From Candidatus Saccharimonadia bacterium (GTDB lineage: Bacteria > Patescibacteriota > SICC01), in NCBI GenBank assembly GCA_025449535.1, contig JANWJF010000001.1, positions 549,136 through 613,135 of the forward strand: DNA of 64,000 nucleotides. The letters are read 5' to 3'. The notes below the pieces were generated by a model. That model saw only the letters and a list, made by a program, of their open reading frames with translations. It was not told the DNA's origin and searched no databases. Both the position numbers and the translations under genes were made by a program. Of the stretch, positions 4,890-30,080 are shown piece after piece; within the stretch, counting starts at the first letter, position 1; every line of letters begins with the position of its first letter.

Positions 4890-5303
4890 TCACTCCTGGT
4901 TCGGAGGGGCGAACTCGCGGAGCCAGGCCTCGGCTTCCGCTTCGGTCTCGAAGATCCTGACCTGGTTCGTCTTGCCGGTGATGTTGAGCATCAGCTGGCC
5001 CACGACGCGCAGCGAGGGAGCGACTCCGAACGCGGCGATCCGGTCGAAGTAACGCGTACTCAGGGTGTGCTTCATCTCGTTCCGGGCCGCCTGAGTCTGC
5101 CCGCCGATCTGCGAGAAATCGGACATGATCAGGACCGGCTCGTGCTTGGCCTGGAGTTCGGCGACGATCTGCTCGGTCTCGGCGGTCGACGTCTGTACCG
5201 TCTCCGCCGTCTGGTCGCCGACGTAGCGATGGCGGATCAGCCCGTTCTCGAGGGAGACGCGGACGGTACCGGAGCTGGCGGGGTCGGCGGTCATCATACG
5301 CAT
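4890..5303 (-). CDS. hypothetical protein (possible STAS-like fold)
   Basis: 137-aa ORF with coding-like composition, convergent with the M16 gene. No recognisable motif. Confidence 0.5.
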   Translation of the reverse strand: MRMMTADPASSGTVRVSLENGLIRHRYVGDQTAETVQTSTAETEQIVAELQAKHEPVLIMSDFSQIGGQTQAARNEMKHTLSTRYFDRIAAFGVAPSLRVVGQLMLNITGKTNQVRIFETEAEAEAWLREFAPPNQE

Positions 5304-8695: not shown

Positions 8696-9861
8696 GCGTC
8701 CGGATCGCCGTCAACGGGCTGTTCCTCGGCCGACCGCACACCGGCATGGGACGATACACCCTCGGGTTGCTCAAGGCGCTGCCCGCCGCGATGAAGGATG
8801 CCGAGTTCGTCGTCTTCGTGCCGGACAAGCCGGACCCGTCCCTGAAGCTGCCGCCAGGGGTTCGGGCCGTCGTCGTACCGACCAAACGCTCCCTCCTTGG
8901 CCGTGGCAAGGCGGTCGACGAGTGGGAACGGAACAAGCTCGGCCTGGCAGCCAGCCAACTTAAGGCGCACCTGATCTTCCAACCGTACCCGACCCCGCCG
9001 ACCCGGAACCCGTACCAGGTCCCGGTCGCGATGGCGGTGCACGACATGATCCCCTGGCAGCTGTCGCGCTACCGTCGTTCGCTGCGCAGCCGTCTGAAGC
9101 TCCGCGGGGTACTCGACGGCATCCGCCGGGCGGACCGTATCGTCACCGTCAGCCGGGCATCCGCCGGGGCGGTCACTTGGGCGAGCAAGGTGCCGGCCGA
9201 CCGGATCAGCGTCACGTACGAAGGGTTGGAGCCGGAGTACTCCCGGAGGCCGTCCGCCGCCGCGATCGCCGCGGCCCGGAAGCGCTACGGTCTGCAGCGG
9301 CCGTTCGTGTTCTATATCGGCGGCTACGACTTCCGGAAGAACGTCCGAGGGCTGATCGAAGGATTCGCCGCGTCCGGACTGGCCGGCGGCCACGACCTGG
9401 TCCTGGCCGGTGCCGTGACCGCCCCGGCCTCGGCGCTGTACGAGGACTTCCACAAGCTGCCCCAGCTGATCGCCCAGGCCGGCATCGGCGGGCGGACCAA
9501 GGTGCTCGGGTTCGTCTCGGAGGGCGAGAAGCGGGCCCTGCTGGCGGCGGCGGATTCGTTCGCGTTCCCGTCACTGGCGGAAGGCTTCGGGCTTCCGGTC
9601 CTCGAGGCCCTGGCCGCCAAGACGCCCGTCGCCGCGACGGACATCGCCACCAACCAGGAGCTGTTTCCCGGCGCCTACGAGCCGTTCCGGCCGGACCAGA
9701 CGGAGGAGCTCGCGAAGGCGCTCCGGGACGCGACACTGGAGCCGGACTCTGCCAAGGTCGCGCGGGGCACGGAGGCCGTCTCGCGGTACACGTGGTCCGC
9801 CTGCGCGGAGCGCACCGCCCGGGTGTTTTCGGAAATGGTCGCCAGATACCATAAAAAATGA
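8692..9861 (+). CDS. glycosyltransferase family 4 (GT-B, group 1)
   Basis: The EGFGLPVLEALAAKTPVAATD motif is the GT1/GT4 EX7E region. 389 aa. Confidence 0.85.
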   Translation: MSVRIAVNGLFLGRPHTGMGRYTLGLLKALPAAMKDAEFVVFVPDKPDPSLKLPPGVRAVVVPTKRSLLGRGKAVDEWERNKLGLAASQLKAHLIFQPYPTPPTRNPYQVPVAMAVHDMIPWQLSRYRRSLRSRLKLRGVLDGIRRADRIVTVSRASAGAVTWASKVPADRISVTYEGLEPEYSRRPSAAAIAAARKRYGLQRPFVFYIGGYDFRKNVRGLIEGFAASGLAGGHDLVLAGAVTAPASALYEDFHKLPQLIAQAGIGGRTKVLGFVSEGEKRALLAAADSFAFPSLAEGFGLPVLEALAAKTPVAATDIATNQELFPGAYEPFRPDQTEELAKALRDATLEPDSAKVARGTEAVSRYTWSACAERTARVFSEMVARYHKK

Positions 9862-11151: not shown

Positions 11152-11224
11152 CCGCTATCGCCACTCGGTGAATAATCCCGATATACTGGTACGGTATGCG
11201 TTTCGCATACGTGCACCTTCGGGG

Positions 11225-11291: not shown

Positions 11292-11366
11292 GGGGGCGTA
11301 GCTCAGTCTGGTTAGAGCGCCTGCCTGTCACGCAGGAGGTCGCCGGTTCGAGTCCGGTCGTCCCCG
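11292..11366 (+). tRNA. tRNA-Asp (anticodon GTC)
   Basis: Acceptor GGGGGCG/CGTCCCC and anticodon loop ctGTCac. CCA is not encoded. Confidence 0.9.
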
Positions 11367-11390
11367 CATAAGTGGTCTAATATAAAACCC

Positions 11391-11912
11391 ATGCCATTGA
11401 TTTACGTTATGGGAGTTAACGGCTCCGGCAAGTCGACAGTGAGAAAAGAGCTGAGTGCTCGCGGGTACCAAGCGCACGAATTGGATGAGGCTCCTGGGGT
11501 CGGCTTTTACAACAAGCGAACCGGGAAAAAGACTCCGCTAGGAGCGAGAACAAAGGCATGGTATGACCAGCATGAATGGATTATGCCTCGTGAAAAGGCA
11601 GAAGAATTTGCAGCTCGTGCTAAAAATGAGTTGATTTTCCTCTGTGGTGGCGTACATAACGAAAAAGACCTTTGGGATCTCTTTGACGTTGCTATCTATT
11701 TGGACATCGATGAACCGACTGTTCTTAAGCGTGTCAGGGAGCGGTCCAAAGGGACGGGAAAAGCTCCCGCGGAATTAGCCGAGCTTCTAAGGTGGCACGC
11801 AATCGCCAAGGACATTTACCTGAAACGAGGAGCAAAAATTGTAAACTCCGCGCAGCCAATCAAGAAGGTAGTTGATGACGTTTTGTCATTCGTGCCATTA
11901 GTTAAAGACTGA
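11391..11912 (+). CDS. P-loop NTPase / small nucleotide-kinase-like protein in a lower-GC insert
   Basis: Walker A VMGVNGSGKST and a DxD-like FDVAIYLDID motif. 173 aa. GC is visibly lower than the flanks. Confidence 0.6.
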   Translation: MPLIYVMGVNGSGKSTVRKELSARGYQAHELDEAPGVGFYNKRTGKKTPLGARTKAWYDQHEWIMPREKAEEFAARAKNELIFLCGGVHNEKDLWDLFDVAIYLDIDEPTVLKRVRERSKGTGKAPAELAELLRWHAIAKDIYLKRGAKIVNSAQPIKKVVDDVLSFVPLVKD

Positions 11913-11913
11913 T

Positions 11914-11940
11914 AACGGTTCGAATCCGGTTGTCCCCGCC
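11914..11940 (+). repeat. direct repeat of the tRNA-Asp 3' end (att-like remnant)
   Basis: acggttcgaatccggttgtccccgcca matches tRNA-Asp 11342-11366 (cggttcgagtccggtcgtccccgc) with 2 mismatches. Confidence 0.7.
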
Positions 11941-11952
11941 ACAAAATCTGAA

Positions 11953-12366
11953 TTACATCAGGTCTTCTAGCTGTTCAGGAGTAAGCCGTAGTACAACGAA
12001 GGCACCAGAACCCTTAACCAGGTTCGCAGAATGGATGACGTCGGGCGGAATGACTATGACGGCAGGTGATTCTACTTCGCGCTCTTCTTCTCCCACGCGA
12101 ATTCGATACACTAATTCACCCGGGGCTCCAGCTAGTACATTTACCTCAGGAAAGGGGTGTGTATGAGCAATTCCGTATTTTCGTTCTTCTTGAGGGGCAC
12201 CGTCAACGACATGAACTGCAGTGTAAAGCGGCTCACCAGCAAAGTAGCGGCGAATATCAGCGTTGTCGCCATACCCTGCTCGCTCTCCTGTATGGTCCCG
12301 GATATGCGAAATGGGTGTTTCTTCTAGGGGCACAACCACTGATTCAAAACCTTTAGAATGAGTCAT
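11953..12366 (-). CDS. cupin-domain protein
   Basis: 137 aa with His-rich motifs (HTHPFPEVNVL, VIHSANL) typical of the cupin metal site. GC is lower than the flanks. Confidence 0.55.
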   Translation of the reverse strand: MTHSKGFESVVVPLEETPISHIRDHTGERAGYGDNADIRRYFAGEPLYTAVHVVDGAPQEERKYGIAHTHPFPEVNVLAGAPGELVYRIRVGEEEREVESPAVIVIPPDVIHSANLVKGSGAFVVLRLTPEQLEDLM

Positions 12367-12423
12367 GATGACCGGGGTTAATGACAGCTTAATTTACCAC
12401 TGTTAAGTCAAAAACAAAAGTAA

Positions 12424-13092
12424 TTATTGAGATCTTGGCCTTCTATTCCAGCTCCGCGCCAGGTGGCGCATCTTGGAGTGCCGGGCCAGCAGGGCGAGCG
12501 AGAGAATCGTGACGGCCGCGCCGATCAGCGCCGTCAGCCAGGGGCGGCTGACCAGGAAGTTGCCCGCGTAGACGTCCGCCGCGAGCCGGGGCGCTGCGCC
12601 GGCGACAGTCGCCAGGAGGTAGGTCCTATACCGGATCCGCAGCAGTCCGGCGAAGTAGCTGTACCAATCGAACGTGAATCCGGCGAACAGCCGCAACAGC
12701 ACGATCGACTGCCAGGTGCCGAGCAGTTCGACCTCCTTGAGGTATGCCTGGTACTCTGGCTTGCCACGGAGCCAACGCTCGCCGAGCCAGCGGGCGATCC
12801 AGAAGTTGGCTGACGCGCCTATGGCCTGGGCGGCCAGGACCAGGAGCAACCCCCACAGGGGATCGAACAGCAATCCAGCGGAGATGGTCAGCGGGCGGGT
12901 CGGCAGGGGCGGGACGACCACGCTGACCGCCACGGCCGCCGCGAAGAGCAGTGGACCGAGCAGGCCGCCGTCGAGCGCGGTGCCGTATACTTCGCGCACC
13001 AATGCCGGCACTGGCAGGAGCCAGGCCGTCGCGGACAATGCGAATAAGACGCCGAGCGTCGCGACGAGCCCCAGCCAGTGCTTCCGCGGCAT
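12424..13092 (-). CDS. TVP38/TMEM64 (DedA-related) family membrane protein
   Basis: 222 aa and multi-TM. The …ISAGLLFDPLWG…GASANFWIARWLG motif is typical of the family. Confidence 0.7.
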   Translation of the reverse strand: MPRKHWLGLVATLGVLFALSATAWLLPVPALVREVYGTALDGGLLGPLLFAAAVAVSVVVPPLPTRPLTISAGLLFDPLWGLLLVLAAQAIGASANFWIARWLGERWLRGKPEYQAYLKEVELLGTWQSIVLLRLFAGFTFDWYSYFAGLLRIRYRTYLLATVAGAAPRLAADVYAGNFLVSRPWLTALIGAAVTILSLALLARHSKMRHLARSWNRRPRSQ

Positions 13093-14727: not shown

Positions 14728-15019
14728 AACAGGCGGAACATGCGCATGGTCACGCCCGCTGCAGGAACCCTAGCAAGTACAACATGAACGTGAAGGTTAC
14801 GGTGATCGCGTACAGCTCGAAGCGCGCCCCGGTATCCAGGAAGGAGGCGATCACGAGTGACGCGATCCATACAACGACGATACTGATGAGGACGAAGAGG
14901 TACTTCAAGAAAACGCGTATTTATCTTCCCCTGTGCCTCAAGGATATCACCTTTTCTCCAAGCACCTGCCACGCCTAGGTTGCAAGTCATCAGGCATGCT
15001 ATCCTTATCCGTTCGCATT

Positions 15020-17476
15020 ATGAATGAAGAGAATCCAGAGTCGGAATGGTTGACTGCCGAAGCCTCCCGGTGGGCGTTCGATGAGACCGTATGGAATCTG
15101 CTTGTAACAGCCCCACATAACCCGCAGGGCCTTACGGTTGGCAGCATGGCGGAATACGTGGCCAGGCGGTATGTCCATCGTGCACGCGGGCTGCCATCAG
15201 AACATACCGATGTCAGTAATGTGGACTTTTCCGGGTTGACCGAAAACGAGCCTTTACCTGGGCCTGAGCCCACCGAACCGGGCGCCAAGCCTGATGATTC
15301 TGGTACCGTCGACTTGGCGAAAGGCGACATCAGTCCCGAAGATCAGAAGGAAATCATGGATTCGTTGATCTTGGCAATCGCCCGGCATTACGACATCCAG
15401 CCCATCGATCTCATGATGGGTGATCGCAAACGCAAGCTCTACAAGCCCCGTCGCGTAGCCTGCTACGCGCTCCGGAACTACGCTAGGATGCCGTTCGATG
15501 ACGTCGCCAGGATCATCGGCGGAACGAGTGCATCGGCGGCATACCAGTCGGCGCTGAGAGTCCGTAGGGAAGATCTTCCTCGGGATATCGAATTACAACG
15601 TGACCTGGTCAGAATCCGCCAGGCCATCCCTCCAGAGCACCGACGTTACATTGCTGACGACGACCTGTTCGACCCGGTCGTGCTTGAAGCGACCGAAGGG
15701 GAGTTCACGCCTGGAGCAATAGAGCCAACCGAGGTCGAGAAGCCGGAAGGAATCCCGGAGGTTCCCATTGGTGACATCATTTTCGAGGTGTGCCGGCAGT
15801 TGGAGGTGACCCAGGAGCAACTGGTCGCCAAGCGGTCTCGGTACGAGAACCGACCGCTGCAAATCGCCGCTTTGCTGGCTGATGAGCTGACCGACTTTTC
15901 ACACGAGAAGATTGGAGCCGAACTGGGAGACCGGTCCGCTCCCGGTATCAAGTCATTGGTGAACCGGGCCGCCCAGGTGATTCCCGACGATCCCGAGTGG
16001 TCCGGACGTTTCCAGGCGGTCAAGGAAGCGCTGCTGATTAGGCATGGCATTCCGGTCGACGGATTGGATGGTGATTCAAGCCAGAATCCGCTGTTCGACA
16101 TGTTGGACGAACCAGGAGAACGGGATGACATCGGGCCGGTCGAAATCGCCCCCGGGGCACCGGAAGCGGCTGAACTCAGTGTCGAGCCCGATGGCCAGTC
16201 TGATGCCGACGAGGAAAAACCGGAAGTCCTGATAGGCGACGAACCGGGGGAAGAAGATGTGGCTCCGGAGGAAGTCGGCGATCCGGAAGGAACGACTGAT
16301 GGTACGGCGGCGGGTGGAGAAAAATTGGCCGAAGAAGTAACCCCGCTTGTGGACGATGAGGAAACTGATGATGAGGCACTCGGCCAGGAGACGATTGAAC
16401 TTTCTACCGAGGGAAGCCGGGCCCAATATACCGAAGAAGGTATCCAAGAGACCATCAAGGCGGTACAAGAAGGGGAAAAGGGTGCGGAAAATGATTTGCT
16501 GTCCAGCCTCCAGCCGAAGTTCGTGGGAGCTGTCGGGGGAGAACGACTTTCGGGATCCAAACGGAATGCCCGCTTAGCGGAGCTCCGCAGCGATGCATTG
16601 GTAGCTGCTAGGCGGTACGACCTTCGTGCGAAGAAACCTATCCTTGAGGCGATTGCAGAGGTGCGGGCGGAGCGGATTCTCCGGCAGGAAAGAACGCAGG
16701 AAGGACTGCAAAAATTGGTGCCTGAACCCTTGCCTGGAGAAACGGACATTGCAAGGGATATCCAAGCTGATTCCGAAGCAGCAGAGCGGCTCCTCCGACA
16801 TTACGATGGAATGATCGACGGCATCACGACCCTTTGTGTCGGCAAGAAGCTCGATGCGGAGGTGAAACAGCTGCTCCGGACGGCCGCAGAAAGCCAATTT
16901 CTGACTGCGGCGAGATACTTTCATACCAGCGGCAATGAGCATTTCGGACTCTGGTGCGCCAAGAGCATCAGCGTCGCCTTGCACAAAGAGATTGAGAAAC
17001 CCAAAGTGGCGGAGCAGCTTGATGCGGCGGAAGAGGAAGCCATCGTGGAAGAGCCGGACGAAACGACCAGTGCAGTCGAGGAACCACCTAAGACAAAACC
17101 CATCTCCACCAAGGCTCCTGTCGTCCTGCCCAAGGACCGGACCGAGCATTTGTTGCCGGTAGGATCCCTGGCGGTCATCGTAGGCAATCAGGAGGAACGG
17201 GTGACCAGGGTTAGGATCAAGGATCCGGAAAAGGACAACACCATAGTGACGAATCTCGAAATACTGGAACAAAATATCAGGGCCAATCCGCACATCATCT
17301 GTGGCACGAATTCACCTGTCCTCATCCCCCTATCGGTACTGGCACGGATACGAGAGGACGACTCGTTTAGAAAGCAATGGCTTGAGCAATGTCACAATGG
17401 GTATACTCCGGATTCGGTCCGGATGATAGAGCGCAACATCGACGCGGCATTGGCTGATCCATTGTTGGCTGCCTAG
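15020..17476 (+). CDS. large acidic protein with two DnaA domain-IV-like HTH domains and a distinct C-terminal domain (hypothetical regulator)
   Basis: Residues ~125-190 (IQPIDLMMGDRKRKLYKPRRVACYALRNYARMPFDDVARIIGGTSASAAYQ) and ~260-330 (…AKRSRYENRPLQIAALLADELTDFSHEKIGAELGDRSAPGIKSLV) match the DnaA C-terminal pattern. A long Asp/Glu-rich linker follows. GC is lower than the flanks. Confidence 0.7.
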   Translation: MNEENPESEWLTAEASRWAFDETVWNLLVTAPHNPQGLTVGSMAEYVARRYVHRARGLPSEHTDVSNVDFSGLTENEPLPGPEPTEPGAKPDDSGTVDLAKGDISPEDQKEIMDSLILAIARHYDIQPIDLMMGDRKRKLYKPRRVACYALRNYARMPFDDVARIIGGTSASAAYQSALRVRREDLPRDIELQRDLVRIRQAIPPEHRRYIADDDLFDPVVLEATEGEFTPGAIEPTEVEKPEGIPEVPIGDIIFEVCRQLEVTQEQLVAKRSRYENRPLQIAALLADELTDFSHEKIGAELGDRSAPGIKSLVNRAAQVIPDDPEWSGRFQAVKEALLIRHGIPVDGLDGDSSQNPLFDMLDEPGERDDIGPVEIAPGAPEAAELSVEPDGQSDADEEKPEVLIGDEPGEEDVAPEEVGDPEGTTDGTAAGGEKLAEEVTPLVDDEETDDEALGQETIELSTEGSRAQYTEEGIQETIKAVQEGEKGAENDLLSSLQPKFVGAVGGERLSGSKRNARLAELRSDALVAARRYDLRAKKPILEAIAEVRAERILRQERTQEGLQKLVPEPLPGETDIARDIQADSEAAERLLRHYDGMIDGITTLCVGKKLDAEVKQLLRTAAESQFLTAARYFHTSGNEHFGLWCAKSISVALHKEIEKPKVAEQLDAAEEEAIVEEPDETTSAVEEPPKTKPISTKAPVVLPKDRTEHLLPVGSLAVIVGNQEERVTRVRIKDPEKDNTIVTNLEILEQNIRANPHIICGTNSPVLIPLSVLARIREDDSFRKQWLEQCHNGYTPDSVRMIERNIDAALADPLLAA

Positions 17477-17495: not shown

Positions 17496-18539
17496 ATGTA
17501 TGCTGGCCGTATGGCAGCGACGCAGAAGATCAGGCTGATCCGGAACCTGGAGGGCGGCGACCTTTTCGAGCTTTTCCTGGTGTCGGCGGCCTCGACCATC
17601 CTGGTCGTCCGGGCGTACCTCAAGCTCGCGGACTATCCCCAGATCGGCGGGGACACCTTGCACATCGCGCATATGCTTCCCGGCGGGATGCTGATGGTGC
17701 TCGGCCTGATCCTGGCCCTCGGGTTCCTGAACAAGGAAGCCCGGACGCTGGCCGCCTTCCTGAGCGGCATCGGGTTCGGCCTGTTTATCGACGAGCTGGG
17801 CAAGTTCATCACCCAGGACAACGATTACTTCTTCCAGCCGACGATCGGCCTGATCTATGTGATCTTCGTCATGCTGTTCCTGCTTGCGAAGTACATCGGC
17901 GATCGCCGGGCGACGGAGCGCGAGAACCTGATTAACGCGATAGAAGCCGCCAAGGAAGTCGCGATCGGCGACTTGGACCGGGTCGAGCAACGGCGGGCGC
18001 TGGCGTATCTGAAGCAAGCGGGGGACGGCGCTATCGGCAAGAGAATCGCCGAGTTGCTCCGTGAGGCGAAGACAAACTCCCGGAACGACGAGAACCCGTA
18101 CCAGCGGATTCGCGGCTGGTTGGCCGAACGGTACGTGGGTTTGGTCGAACGACCTTGGTTCAGCCGCGCCGTCATCGCCTTCTTCGTGCTCGGATCGTCC
18201 GCTTCGCTCGTGTTGTCGGCCTACGACATCGTGGCGCGCCCGGCACAGGTATCCTTCGCCGACAAGGGGGAACTGCTCTTCTCCTCGGTCACGGGGATCC
18301 TGGTGCTGCTCGGGACCTTCCGGTTGCTGCGGCGTTCGCGACTGGCCGGATACCAGACGTTCGAGCGGGCGGTGCTCGTCTTCCTGTTCCTGACCCAGTT
18401 CTTCCTCTTCATCCAGGACGAACTGGCGGCGCTTCCCGGCCTGGCGATAGGGTTGCTGGTCCTATCCGCGCTTCACTACGCCATCCGCCAGGAACGGTAC
18501 GGCCGCAAGGTCACTCGGGCAGCCGGCTCACCCGGATGA
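17496..18539 (+). CDS. polytopic membrane protein (hypothetical)
   Basis: 347 aa with ≥6 TM helices. No recognisable catalytic motif. Confidence 0.65.
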   Translation: MYAGRMAATQKIRLIRNLEGGDLFELFLVSAASTILVVRAYLKLADYPQIGGDTLHIAHMLPGGMLMVLGLILALGFLNKEARTLAAFLSGIGFGLFIDELGKFITQDNDYFFQPTIGLIYVIFVMLFLLAKYIGDRRATERENLINAIEAAKEVAIGDLDRVEQRRALAYLKQAGDGAIGKRIAELLREAKTNSRNDENPYQRIRGWLAERYVGLVERPWFSRAVIAFFVLGSSASLVLSAYDIVARPAQVSFADKGELLFSSVTGILVLLGTFRLLRRSRLAGYQTFERAVLVFLFLTQFFLFIQDELAALPGLAIGLLVLSALHYAIRQERYGRKVTRAAGSPG

Positions 18540-19668
18540 TCCGGTCGTCCCCCTTCTGCGGCTCGCCACGGCCGTCACGGTTGGACGTCAGGATGTAGAG
18601 CGCGCCGTCGGGACCGGTCGCCACGGTCCGGATCCGCCCGAACTCGTCTTTGAACAGCTCCCGGTCATCGGACACGCGGTCATCCTCGATCGTGACTTCG
18701 TGCAGGTGCGCGTCCCGCAGCGCGCCGAAGTACAGCCTGCCGTCCTTGATCGTCAGGGAAGCCGGAGCCCAGGCGACGCTGTTGCCGCTGGAAAGGATCG
18801 GCATACCCAACCCGAAACGGCGTTCGGTGCCGGTAATCAGCGGCCAACCGTAGTTGCCGCCGCGCTCAATCCGGTTCAGCTCGTCGCGGCAGCAGAGCCC
18901 GAACTCTCCGGTCGGGCCGTGCTCGGTCGCGTACAGCCGCCCCTCCGAGTCCCAGGCAAGGCCCTGCGGGTTGCGGTGTCCGAACGACCAGACCAGGTTG
19001 TCGAACGGGTTGTCCGCCGGGACGGACCCGTCCGGGTTCATCCGGAGGATCTTTCCGGCCAGGGAGCCCTGCTCCTGGGCCAGGTCCGGATCCTGCGCGT
19101 CCCCGGTGGTGACGTACAACTTCCGGTCGGGGCCGAACCGCAACCGTCCGCCGTTGTGGTTCGCGTTGCCGGGGATGTCGTCGAGCAGGACGCGTTCGTT
19201 CACGAGCTTGTCGGCGTCATCGAGCCGGTAGCGGACCACCTGGTTGGTCAGGTCGTCGCCCGAACTCTCGCTGGCGTACAGGTAGACGAAGCGGTCCCGC
19301 TCGAAGTCCGGACTGATCGCCATGCCCTGCAGCCCGCCCTCGCCCCTGGCGACGGTCGCCAGGGTGAGCGCCGGTTCACCGCGGAGACGGTCGTTTTCCA
19401 GCACCCGCACTCGCCCGGGCCGTTCGGTCACCAGGGCCTTGGTTTTGGACAGGAACGCGATATCCCACGGGACCTCCAGTCCCCCCGCCACGGTCTCGAT
19501 TGCCGACCCGGACTGGGACACGGAAGTCGGTGAGGGCGCGGTCCGGGGGCGGTCGAACGAGCCGCCCACGACGGCGATCCCGACGGCCACTACGGTCAGC
19601 AGGCAGATCACGGCTATGGCCAGGTTTCGCATATTAGCCGGTATCTCACTTCTGGACGTGGATTGCAA
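18511..19668 (-). CDS. PQQ-dependent soluble sugar dehydrogenase family (GSDH/YliI-like beta-propeller), secreted
   Basis: N-terminal signal peptide. The …HNGGRLRFGPDRKLYVTTGD… and PQGLAWDSEGRLYATEHGP…GGNYGWP motifs are characteristic of the family. Confidence 0.75.
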   Translation of the reverse strand: MQSTSRSEIPANMRNLAIAVICLLTVVAVGIAVVGGSFDRPRTAPSPTSVSQSGSAIETVAGGLEVPWDIAFLSKTKALVTERPGRVRVLENDRLRGEPALTLATVARGEGGLQGMAISPDFERDRFVYLYASESSGDDLTNQVVRYRLDDADKLVNERVLLDDIPGNANHNGGRLRFGPDRKLYVTTGDAQDPDLAQEQGSLAGKILRMNPDGSVPADNPFDNLVWSFGHRNPQGLAWDSEGRLYATEHGPTGEFGLCCRDELNRIERGGNYGWPLITGTERRFGLGMPILSSGNSVAWAPASLTIKDGRLYFGALRDAHLHEVTIEDDRVSDDRELFKDEFGRIRTVATGPDGALYILTSNRDGRGEPQKGDDRIIRVSRLPE

Positions 19669-29396: not shown

Positions 29397-30065
29397 ATGA
29401 GCGGCGATCCAGGCGGACCTCCCGAAGGGCCGGACCGTCCGGAAGTGCTGTACGAAGGTCCGTACAGCATCGAGCAGTGTGCCGCCGCGGCGTGCTGGGT
29501 CTATGACCTGTCACTAAGCGAGCTGAGAAGCGCCTCTCGGATGAACAGCGCGTTGAGCGCTCGCAGCCTGGCGGTCTGCCTGGCCCGGGCCCAAGAGGAG
29601 CCGCCGTCGTATCCGCAGATCGGAAGATACCTCTACCGGCATCATTCGACGATTATGAACAGCGAAGCCCGCGGCAGGGCGATGCTCGAAGATAACCGGG
29701 AATTCAGGATGCGGTACGAGAAGGCGCGGCGAGGAATCCAGGAAGGCACCGTCGAGAGGGGGCCGACCAAACCCAGTGAGGATCGCCTCCAAGACCTGAT
29801 CAAGGACGCCATTTGGCGCGGAGAGCTTACTCCGATCGACGTGCTGGACCATGAGATTGCCCGGGGAATGAAGATCCACGAATTACTGGTTGCGCTGCCC
29901 GCTTCGGATGGCGAAGCGACGATGAGTGCCGAGGAACGGGCCAGCCTGATCCTCCTGACCGCGGGGATACTGGAAAGGCGACGTGTGCAGGACATGTCTC
30001 AAGTCGAGAAGGACGCCCTCTACCACGTTCTTGATGAGCTAGGGTTCATGCCGAAGTCAGCCTAG
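29397..30065 (+). CDS. DnaA domain-IV-like HTH protein (not DnaA; hypothetical regulator)
   Basis: SIEQCAAAACWVYDLSLSELRSASRMNSALSARSLAVCLARAQEEPPSYPQIGRYLYRHHSTIMNSEAR matches the DnaA C-terminal DNA-binding pattern. No AAA+ domain is present. Confidence 0.6.
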   Translation: MSGDPGGPPEGPDRPEVLYEGPYSIEQCAAAACWVYDLSLSELRSASRMNSALSARSLAVCLARAQEEPPSYPQIGRYLYRHHSTIMNSEARGRAMLEDNREFRMRYEKARRGIQEGTVERGPTKPSEDRLQDLIKDAIWRGELTPIDVLDHEIARGMKIHELLVALPASDGEATMSAEERASLILLTAGILERRRVQDMSQVEKDALYHVLDELGFMPKSA

Positions 30066-30080
30066 CTGTACACTGGAGCC

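Follow-up and report, generated by a model that had tools for sequence, protein, structure and literature searches.

How did a low-GC kinase gene come to lie directly between an intact tRNA-Asp gene and a second copy of the 3' end of that tRNA, in a stretch of DNA where no integrase gene was found? This question is raised by a 64,000-nucleotide (64-kb) stretch of the contig JANWJF010000001.1 from a Candidatus Saccharimonadia bacterium, which is referred to here as the window. The GC content of the window is 62%, and its host is a high-GC metagenome-assembled genome of Patescibacteria, with a contig of 681-813 kb. The locus is interpreted here, with a probability of about 0.55, as a non-autonomous remnant of tRNA-targeted integration that resembles a cis-mobilizable element (CIME).

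The tRNA-Asp(GTC) gene (11292..11367, plus strand) is intact, as recognized by ARAGORN and the tRNA model of Rfam (70 bits). This gene serves as the target of integration, and the attL-side copy of the repeat is part of it. CCA is not encoded in this gene; the discriminator G11366 is followed by CAT. A repeat search revealed a single direct repeat of 24 nt, in which 22 of the 24 positions are identical. Copy 1 (11344..11367, plus strand; CGGTTCGAGTCCGGTCGTCCCCGC) begins with the T-stem 5' strand and continues to where the tRNA ends on its 3' side. Copy 2 (11916-11939; CGGTTCGAATCCGGTTGTCCCCGC) belongs to an attR-like fragment (11916..11941, plus strand) that includes the T-arm, the 3' strand of the acceptor stem, the discriminator, and an encoded CCA at 11939-11941. 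Both mismatches between the copies are G:C to A:T transitions. A degenerate pattern search over the 64 kb found exactly two sites of the repeat, while 0.03 are expected from shuffles. The window has eight further tRNAs, and a comparable duplicate of the 3' end is seen for none of them. Between the two copies there is only the gene of a P-loop kinase (11391..11912, plus strand), whose ATG is 23 nt past tRNA-Asp and whose stop codon is 3 nt ahead of copy 2. A preliminary description of this DNA had reported a duplicated tRNA-Asp 3' end with two mismatches and a kinase-like gene between the copies, and both the repeat and the open reading frame (ORF) were confirmed.

The tRNA likeness of copy 2 starts abruptly at the T-stem, right behind the kinase coding sequence, and the Rfam tRNA model detects no second tRNA at this position with E-values up to 10. 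A tRNA pseudogene generated by local duplication was rejected, since the similarity is limited to the T-stem onward and the model reports no tRNA. A third tRNA-end remnant was also considered at 18533-18553, where 13 nt (TCCGGTCGTCCCC) match exactly. This match is taken as chance because the conserved GSDH gene encodes its C-terminal motif GDDRIIRV there. The arrangement of tRNA-Asp, kinase gene, and fragment is present on six to seven independent contigs from several samples, and therefore does not stem from faulty assembly. The repeat is regarded as a genuine scar of the attL/attR type, left when DNA inserted into tRNA-Asp in its 3' part.

The foreign DNA is not confined to the interval between the repeat copies. 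The low-GC patch spans 11368-12447 (1.08 kb) and covers the kinase gene, the fragment, a gene for a cupin-like protein, and the last seven codons of a VTT/DedA-like gene, with sharp switches of composition at 11368 and at about 12447. At the left border, it begins with an AT-rich leader of 23 nt (11368..11390, plus strand), and the GC content falls from 0.70 to 0.33 across 11350-11410. The GC content at third codon positions (GC3) is 0.49 in the kinase gene and 0.38 in the cupin-like gene, versus 0.74-0.92 in the compositionally native neighbouring genes. The lower GC that had been ascribed to both genes is seen in their codon usage as well. An AT-rich intergenic stretch (12367..12423; 23-30% GC) upstream of the cupin-like gene is still within the patch, and the right junction, located by codon composition, falls in the 3' end of the VTT/DedA-like gene (12424..12447, minus strand). 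The last seven codons and the stop codon of this gene (AAT AGA AGG CCA AGA TCT CAA TAA) are of foreign composition: one of the last seven sense codons ends in G or C versus 29 of the preceding 30, and GC3 is 0.25 for the last eight codons if the native TGG is included. On this codon composition, the C-terminal tail of the VTT protein is chimeric, with seven foreign codons, and the right border is an illegitimate junction inside an ORF. No match to the tRNA end within six edits was found at the right border (12424-12447). The cupin-like gene to the right of the fragment is as foreign as the kinase gene, and therefore the repeat is located inside the foreign DNA and is not its right edge. The description of a low-GC insert of about 0.55 kb bracketed by the repeat must accordingly be replaced by that of a 1.08-kb patch whose right border lies, repeat-less, within the VTT ORF.

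Related loci were obtained with the adjacent PpiC gene as an anchor (L003, L083, L166, L167, and L168). A metagenome scan for closer relatives revealed nothing nearer than 35% PpiC identity. The identity matrices of GT4, PpiC, and NDK gave the topology ((window, L003, L166), (L167, L168)) with L083 as the outgroup, and L083 is the most distant relative (39% for PpiC and 51% for GT4). The tRNA-Asp gene is identical or nearly identical in all five relatives. L166 was left out of the occupancy comparison, as its contig ends inside tRNA-Asp. The DNA on the 3' side of tRNA-Asp is variable across the five genomes that are readable there. An empty-site comparison had been proposed in the preliminary description, and it found L003, L167, and L168 unoccupied: they have tRNA-Asp, and neither the kinase gene nor the tRNA-end fragment. 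The tRNA is followed by a 240-aa ORF in L003, by a terminator and a 211-aa ORF in L167, and by a terminator and two small ORFs in L168; the terminators of L167 and L168 are directly 3' of tRNA-Asp.

The kinase gene is present 3' of tRNA-Asp in the window and in L083. In L083, the order is tRNA-Asp, 8 nt, kinase gene, 6 nt, and a fragment (GCGGTTCGAATAACGTCCGACCGTCCCCGCCAC). This fragment starts at the same tRNA position as that of the window (CGGTTCGA...), ends with CCAC, and loses its T-arm to a 5-nt insertion. The L083 kinase shows 81% amino acid identity to the window copy, and its GC3 is 0.38 in a contig of 61% GC. The cassette is followed by near-native DNA, without the cupin-like gene. 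Relatives sharing the identical layout and lacking any empty site had been named as evidence against integration; the layout does recur in L083, so that this objection holds in part. Judged from these contigs, the DNA just 3' of tRNA-Asp is a gene-exchange hot spot in one high-GC clade of the candidate phyla radiation (CPR). Two independent contigs break inside a tRNA gene (the end of L166 at 9432-9478 and the start of another locus, L084, at 1-51), which is expected where strains differ in the DNA that follows the tRNA at once.

On the upstream side, a promoter scan found a promoter-like site of tRNA-Asp (11158..11187, plus strand), consisting of TCGCCA, an 18-nt spacer, and TATACT, and no further consensus promoter between this site and the kinase gene. 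The motif ATCGCCA...CCCGATATACT upstream of tRNA-Asp is conserved in L003, L166, L167, and L168 and diverges in L083. The clade-wide promoter-like motif of the window and these four loci can also be written ATCGCCA...CCCGATATACTGGTACGG. The window and L166 have in common an extra tRNA leader, about 75 nt in length, that contains a 10-bp hairpin (GGGGCCGTAC/GTACGTCCCC), and the stem of this hairpin resembles the tRNA acceptor stem. A 5' tRNA remnant or mini-helix in this leader (GGGGCCGTAC...GTACGTCCCC) was rejected, as the alignment scores are at the level of shuffles. In L083, 21 nt of the tRNA-Asp 5' end are repeated (20 of 21 identical; within 4979-5073) just past the promoter motif, with a score reached by 0 of 2000 shuffles. 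This copy is followed by CGCCTGCC...GCAGG, which resembles a decayed anticodon stem or arm, and is located 74 nt before the intact tRNA-Asp. A similar 5' copy is found upstream of tRNA-Thr in another locus (L046, 1491-1514).

Scars of this kind are not restricted to the window. Among the 62 tRNAs in the fetched loci, four are followed downstream, on the same strand, by a second copy of their final 24 nt, while about 0.05 are expected from shuffled patterns. The other three are in Saccharibacteria-like metagenome loci: tRNA-Arg(CCT) of L088 (4526-4752, minus strand), tRNA-Thr(CGT) of L088 (7367-7582, plus strand), and tRNA-Asp(GTC) of L090 (8309-8563, minus strand). Their inserts are non-coding, 120-155 nt in length, and each is closed by an 18-23-nt copy of the sequence from the T-loop to CCA. 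They match no Rfam family. A common tiny mobile element was rejected as their source because the inserts are mutually unrelated. The L090 insert holds a 12-nt inverted copy of the T-arm. The scars at these three other tRNAs suggest that the process is general in the group.

Homologues of the kinase itself were also found next to tRNA sequences. In L173, a homologue (42% identical) is located between direct repeats of 54 nt (81%) and 27 nt (85%), in the regions 463-536 and 1083-1255; the copy on the downstream side has a 92-nt interruption. These repeats are homologous to the tRNA-Lys end and terminator of L084, with a score that 0 of 1000 shuffles reach. The L084 contig opens inside the tRNA, which is followed by the terminator (1-104) and then by a kinase homologue. 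This tRNA was read by eye as Lys-CTT from the anticodon loop CTCTTAA. The L173 and L084 kinases are at about 40% identity. Universal linkage of the kinase family to tRNAs was rejected, because no tRNA is near the gene in L085 or in the loci from a Streptomyces plasmid and a Rhizobium plasmid. The locus L174 was mostly N.

In the explanation proposed here, DNA with a copy of the 3' part of tRNA-Asp (T-stem to 3' end) would have recombined with the chromosomal tRNA-Asp, the sublocation of integration being the region from the T-loop to the 3' end. This would have left the tRNA intact on the left side and, to its right, one kinase gene followed by 24-26 nt repeated from the tRNA end. The junctions may have been made by a site-specific recombinase that acted in trans or has since been lost. 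As the simplest account, the cupin-like gene, which abuts the fragment, would be a second unit accreted at the same att site, and a deletion would have removed the far end of this unit and fused foreign DNA to the native VTT gene at its 3' end. The order of the insertions would be the kinase unit and then the cupin-like unit. The predicted empty-site junction is tRNA-Asp ...GTCCCCGC joined to CACAAAATCTGAATTAC, and the predicted circle junction is the kinase 3' end, one repeat, and then ATAAGTGGTCTAATATAAAACCC. As the kinase unit is without a recombinase, it would now be a non-autonomous, CIME-like islet. The preliminary description had read the locus as a footprint of site-specific integration. 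This reading is upheld in that the repeat behaves as an att-type scar; the part of an integrase in the insertion is probable at best, and the import of a donor locus by tRNA-anchored recombination competes with it.

Several observations weigh against the integration account. No called gene or gap ORF of the window matches a recombinase or integrase family of Pfam, as the preliminary description had also noted, and because no integrase was found in a search covering the 64-kb window, the recombination step is unproven. Foreign DNA lies to the left and to the right of the fragment, and the right border has no second repeat, so that a one-step attL/attR model needs the added accretion and deletion. 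Within the population of the window, no excision or empty-site polymorphism was found, and all six to seven contigs are filled. The parsimony of presence and absence is tied between two gains and two losses. The number of nonsynonymous substitutions per site (dN) between the window and L083 kinases is 0.15, close to 0.18 for the vertically inherited NDK, and therefore the protein identity of the kinase alone is no proof of transfer. With NDK at 78% identity as well, an initial impression that the kinase greatly exceeds the backbone in similarity lost weight.

The synonymous sites of the two kinase genes are saturated (proportion of synonymous differences, pS, 0.79). Together with the dN of 0.15, this indicates that the kinase is under purifying selection; a recent transfer between the lineages of the window and L083 was rejected on the same saturation. 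Despite this complete synonymous turnover, both copies retain low GC3 (0.49 and 0.38) in hosts whose own GC3 is about 0.87. After full synonymous turnover, host-like GC3 would be expected of a resident gene, and long residence is thereby contradicted. It is also unlikely that a non-functional 24-nt repeat stays 92% identical over such divergence. On account of the low GC3 and the repeat identity, it is more likely from these sequences that the gene was acquired on two separate occasions, from a low-GC pool and at an identical tRNA position, than that the copies share ancestry.

The main rival to integration at this site, rather unlikely in itself, is the import of a pre-formed donor locus. The whole 1.08-kb block, scar included, would have come from a low-GC donor, with tRNA-Asp as the anchor on the left and an illegitimate join in the VTT gene on the right, and no integrase would have acted here. 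Naturally transformable bacteria possess such a mechanism, homology-facilitated illegitimate recombination. The tRNA-Asp gene is nearly identical in all six lineages, and therefore a good homology anchor. The uniformly low composition on both sides of the fragment, the repeat-less junction inside an ORF, and the lack of recombinase matches in the window are all what an import would leave. The fragment differs from the resident tRNA (GAAT, TTG, and the encoded CCA) and has GAAT and CCACA in common with the fragment of L083, which would suit a sequence that travelled with the cassette. Recombination of this kind is documented (e.g., PMC3410848). However, no donor with the block was found, and the nearest relative of the cupin-like protein is at 55%. 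The GC3 values of the two genes are unequal (0.49 for the kinase vs. 0.38 for the cupin-like gene), and the L083 cassette leads into near-native DNA instead of the cupin-like gene. A scar in the donor would, moreover, still need site-specific integration.

A bolder and decidedly unlikely reading regards the kinase gene and its own 3' mimic of a tRNA 3' end as a long-lived, self-contained single-gene cassette, moved by an unlinked recombinase in trans into tRNA 3' ends, those of tRNA-Asp in two deeply diverged Patescibacteria and of tRNA-Lys in two other uncultured bacteria. The kinase-only unit in three independent contexts fits this reading, as do the common start of the fragment in the window and L083, the GAAT and CCACA that these two fragments share, and the ancient divergence of the two cassette copies, whose synonymous divergence (dS) is saturated.

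It is quite improbable that the layout is an ancient resident one, present in the common ancestor of the window and L083 as an old scar or tRNA pseudogene remnant and cleanly lost in L003 and in L167/L168. The outgroup L083 has the same gene at the same site with a fragment from the same tRNA position, synonymous divergence is saturated with dN comparable to NDK, and two losses are as parsimonious as two gains. Such residence is hard to reconcile with GC3 of 0.49 and 0.38 in hosts with about 0.87 despite synonymous turnover, and a 24-nt repeat that is 92% identical is unlikely at the PpiC divergence (39%). In addition, L167 and L168 have a clean tRNA plus terminator, and L003 is also clean; no fragments are left, so that each loss had to be precise.

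A unit that brings a complete tRNA-Asp together with the kinase, splits the resident tRNA-Asp into a 5' part upstream and a 3' part downstream, and replaces it is very improbable. It is suggested by L083 alone, where the 21-nt copy of the tRNA-Asp 5' end is at the native position, ahead of the intact tRNA, the kinase gene, and the 3' fragment; the 5' copy upstream of a second tRNA in L046 would be in line with it. The window has no significant 5' remnant, and its leader aligns with the tRNA and with the L083 leader at shuffle level. This leader is common to L166, the promoter motif is common to kinase-less relatives, and the tRNA sequence is too conserved to separate a resident from an imported copy.

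Chance similarity, or a functional tRNA-like RNA with no link to mobility that would terminate the kinase mRNA, or signal its processing, at the 3' end, is hardly credible: the fragment contains a T-arm hairpin and is located between two convergent stop codons, where a terminator is expected, but 0.03 sites are expected by chance, the fragments of the window and L083 fold no more stably than shuffles (z = 0.3 to -1.0), no terminator is called and no T-run follows, and the T-arm is destroyed by the 5-nt insertion in the L083 copy.

The kinase (173 aa) matches AAA_18 of Pfam with an E-value of 1.1e-8 (36.1 bits, cut-off 29.4), and weaker matches are seen with Thymidylate_kin, AAA_33, dNK, and SKI. 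In 17 homologues, GxxGSGKS, D32, D99, R114, and R118 are invariant, and the protein has the Walker A motif and LID arginines of the P-loop kinases. The AlphaFold model has a predicted local distance difference test (pLDDT) score of 92.8, and its best folds in PDB are sugar, shikimate, and adenylate kinases and Fap7/AK6, with template modeling (TM) scores of 0.6-0.67. Foldseek gave a probability of 1.0 against sugar, shikimate, and adenylate kinases, and a profile search of PDB sequences agrees with this fold assignment. The predicted structure indicates a generic P-loop protein of the nucleoside monophosphate (NMP)/shikimate/gluconate-kinase fold, of the small-molecule or nucleotide type. The Zeta toxin or UDP-N-acetylglucosamine (UNAG) kinase proposed in the preliminary description was rejected, as the profile search gives AAA_18 and no Zeta_toxin match, and no small partner gene is adjacent.

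No matches to the kinase were found among phages, and viral contigs gave one weak match, to the P-loop only. The PADLOC matches are weak (E-values of 1e-4 or weaker, below 21 bits) and mostly cover short stretches. A phage or defence origin was rejected on these results. The matches from plasmids are only distant homologues of the chromosomal type. In the leader, TAATAT is located 7 nt before the kinase ATG and could be a -10-like element. Transcription of the kinase gene probably starts within its own leader, which is AT-rich, or reads through from the promoter of the tRNA.

The second cargo gene (11953..12366, minus strand) is convergent with the kinase gene and encodes the cupin-like protein of 137 aa. 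Its stop codon is 11 nt beyond the CCA of the fragment. The protein has no match in Pfam, NCBIfam, or PHROG. A word-indexed search finds only the protein itself, and an exhaustive search finds 130 remote homologues, the closest at 55%. A few of these relatives show sub-threshold matches to Cupin_2, ARD, or AraC_binding. The motifs HxHxxxE and PxxxxHxxN were recognized by eye. The structure model from the single sequence is unusable (pLDDT 43).

Some neighbouring features are of separate note. The window holds two genes of the VTT/DedA family (642-1277 and 12424-13092), and the second is the one with the chimeric tail. At 14933-17476, an 818-847-aa protein is encoded whose sole Pfam match is the C-terminal helix-turn-helix of DnaA (DnaA_C); its GC3 is intermediate (0.62), and no counterpart was found among the related loci fetched. 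A second DnaA_C protein (222 aa) is encoded at about 29400-30070, some 13 kb beyond this gene. The block from tRNA-Asp to GSDH (VTT, ABC1, DnaA_C, and a 342-aa protein) stands where L167 and L168 have a membrane protein and a phosphoribosyl pyrophosphate (PRPP) synthase.

Several known systems are comparable with this locus. CIMEs have been defined in other work (PMC5704250). Like them, the window locus is bounded by the target gene's end and a direct repeat of that end, keeps an attL/attR-type pair in the absence of recombinase and transfer genes, and has a second foreign unit in tandem, as in accretion. In contrast, its unit is a single gene (about 0.55 kb), there is no integrase-bearing neighbour in the 64 kb, and the Patescibacteria host also sets it apart. 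The phage and plasmid searches gave no parent integrative and conjugative element (ICE) or integrative mobilizable element (IME) from which the unit could have descended.

The ssrA genomic islands of Dehalococcoides include 15 without an integration module, and these were proposed to be CIMEs or fixed (PMC3146451). The similarities to the window are a small streamlined genome, low-GC DNA placed immediately downstream of a structured-RNA gene that is single-copy, and a direct repeat of about 20 bp, which copies the RNA 3' end and starts in the T-loop region. The Dehalococcoides islands are tandem multi-gene arrays with the serine recombinase family DsiB in sister islands, whereas the window locus has a single repeat and no known cognate recombinase. 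In the islands of Prochlorococcus, partial tRNAs are taken as traces of old integrations, and newer elements push older ones inward (10.1101/2020.12.28.424599). These tRNA-linked islands and tycheposon remnants resemble the window in the variable DNA beside tRNA genes, the streamlined genomes, and the partial tRNA copies. Tycheposons, however, carry tyrosine recombinases and replication modules, while the cargo here is one or two genes without either. The window unit is similar to an integron gene cassette in having one ORF, very short flanks, and a single short 3' sequence like a recombination site, and in the presence of one cassette in unrelated chromosomal backgrounds. It differs in having no attC (the R''/L''-L'/R' inverted repeats and the GTTRRRY core), IntI, attI, or Pc, and its site is a tRNA end.

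The mechanism class is well known from other bacteria, and therefore the locus extends a known pattern and is not a new one. As a genomic islet, the tRNA-Asp locus is real but of an ordinary kind. It is distinguished by its minimal size, by the phylum of its host, and by the recurrence of one single-gene unit at one tRNA across hosts that are deeply diverged. A limited literature search found no description of such tRNA-linked islands in Patescibacteria. Members of the Patescibacteria, or CPR, have tiny genomes in which gene gain is little documented, and here small foreign genes are found behind tRNA-end repeats, with no integrase in 64 kb, in a high-GC CPR clade. The kinase would be a plausible adaptive cargo for salvage-dependent organisms. 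If the reading of the kinase unit as a self-contained cassette were true, it would mean that ultra-small genomes have a cassette economy similar to that of integrons, with tRNA ends as the recombination sites.

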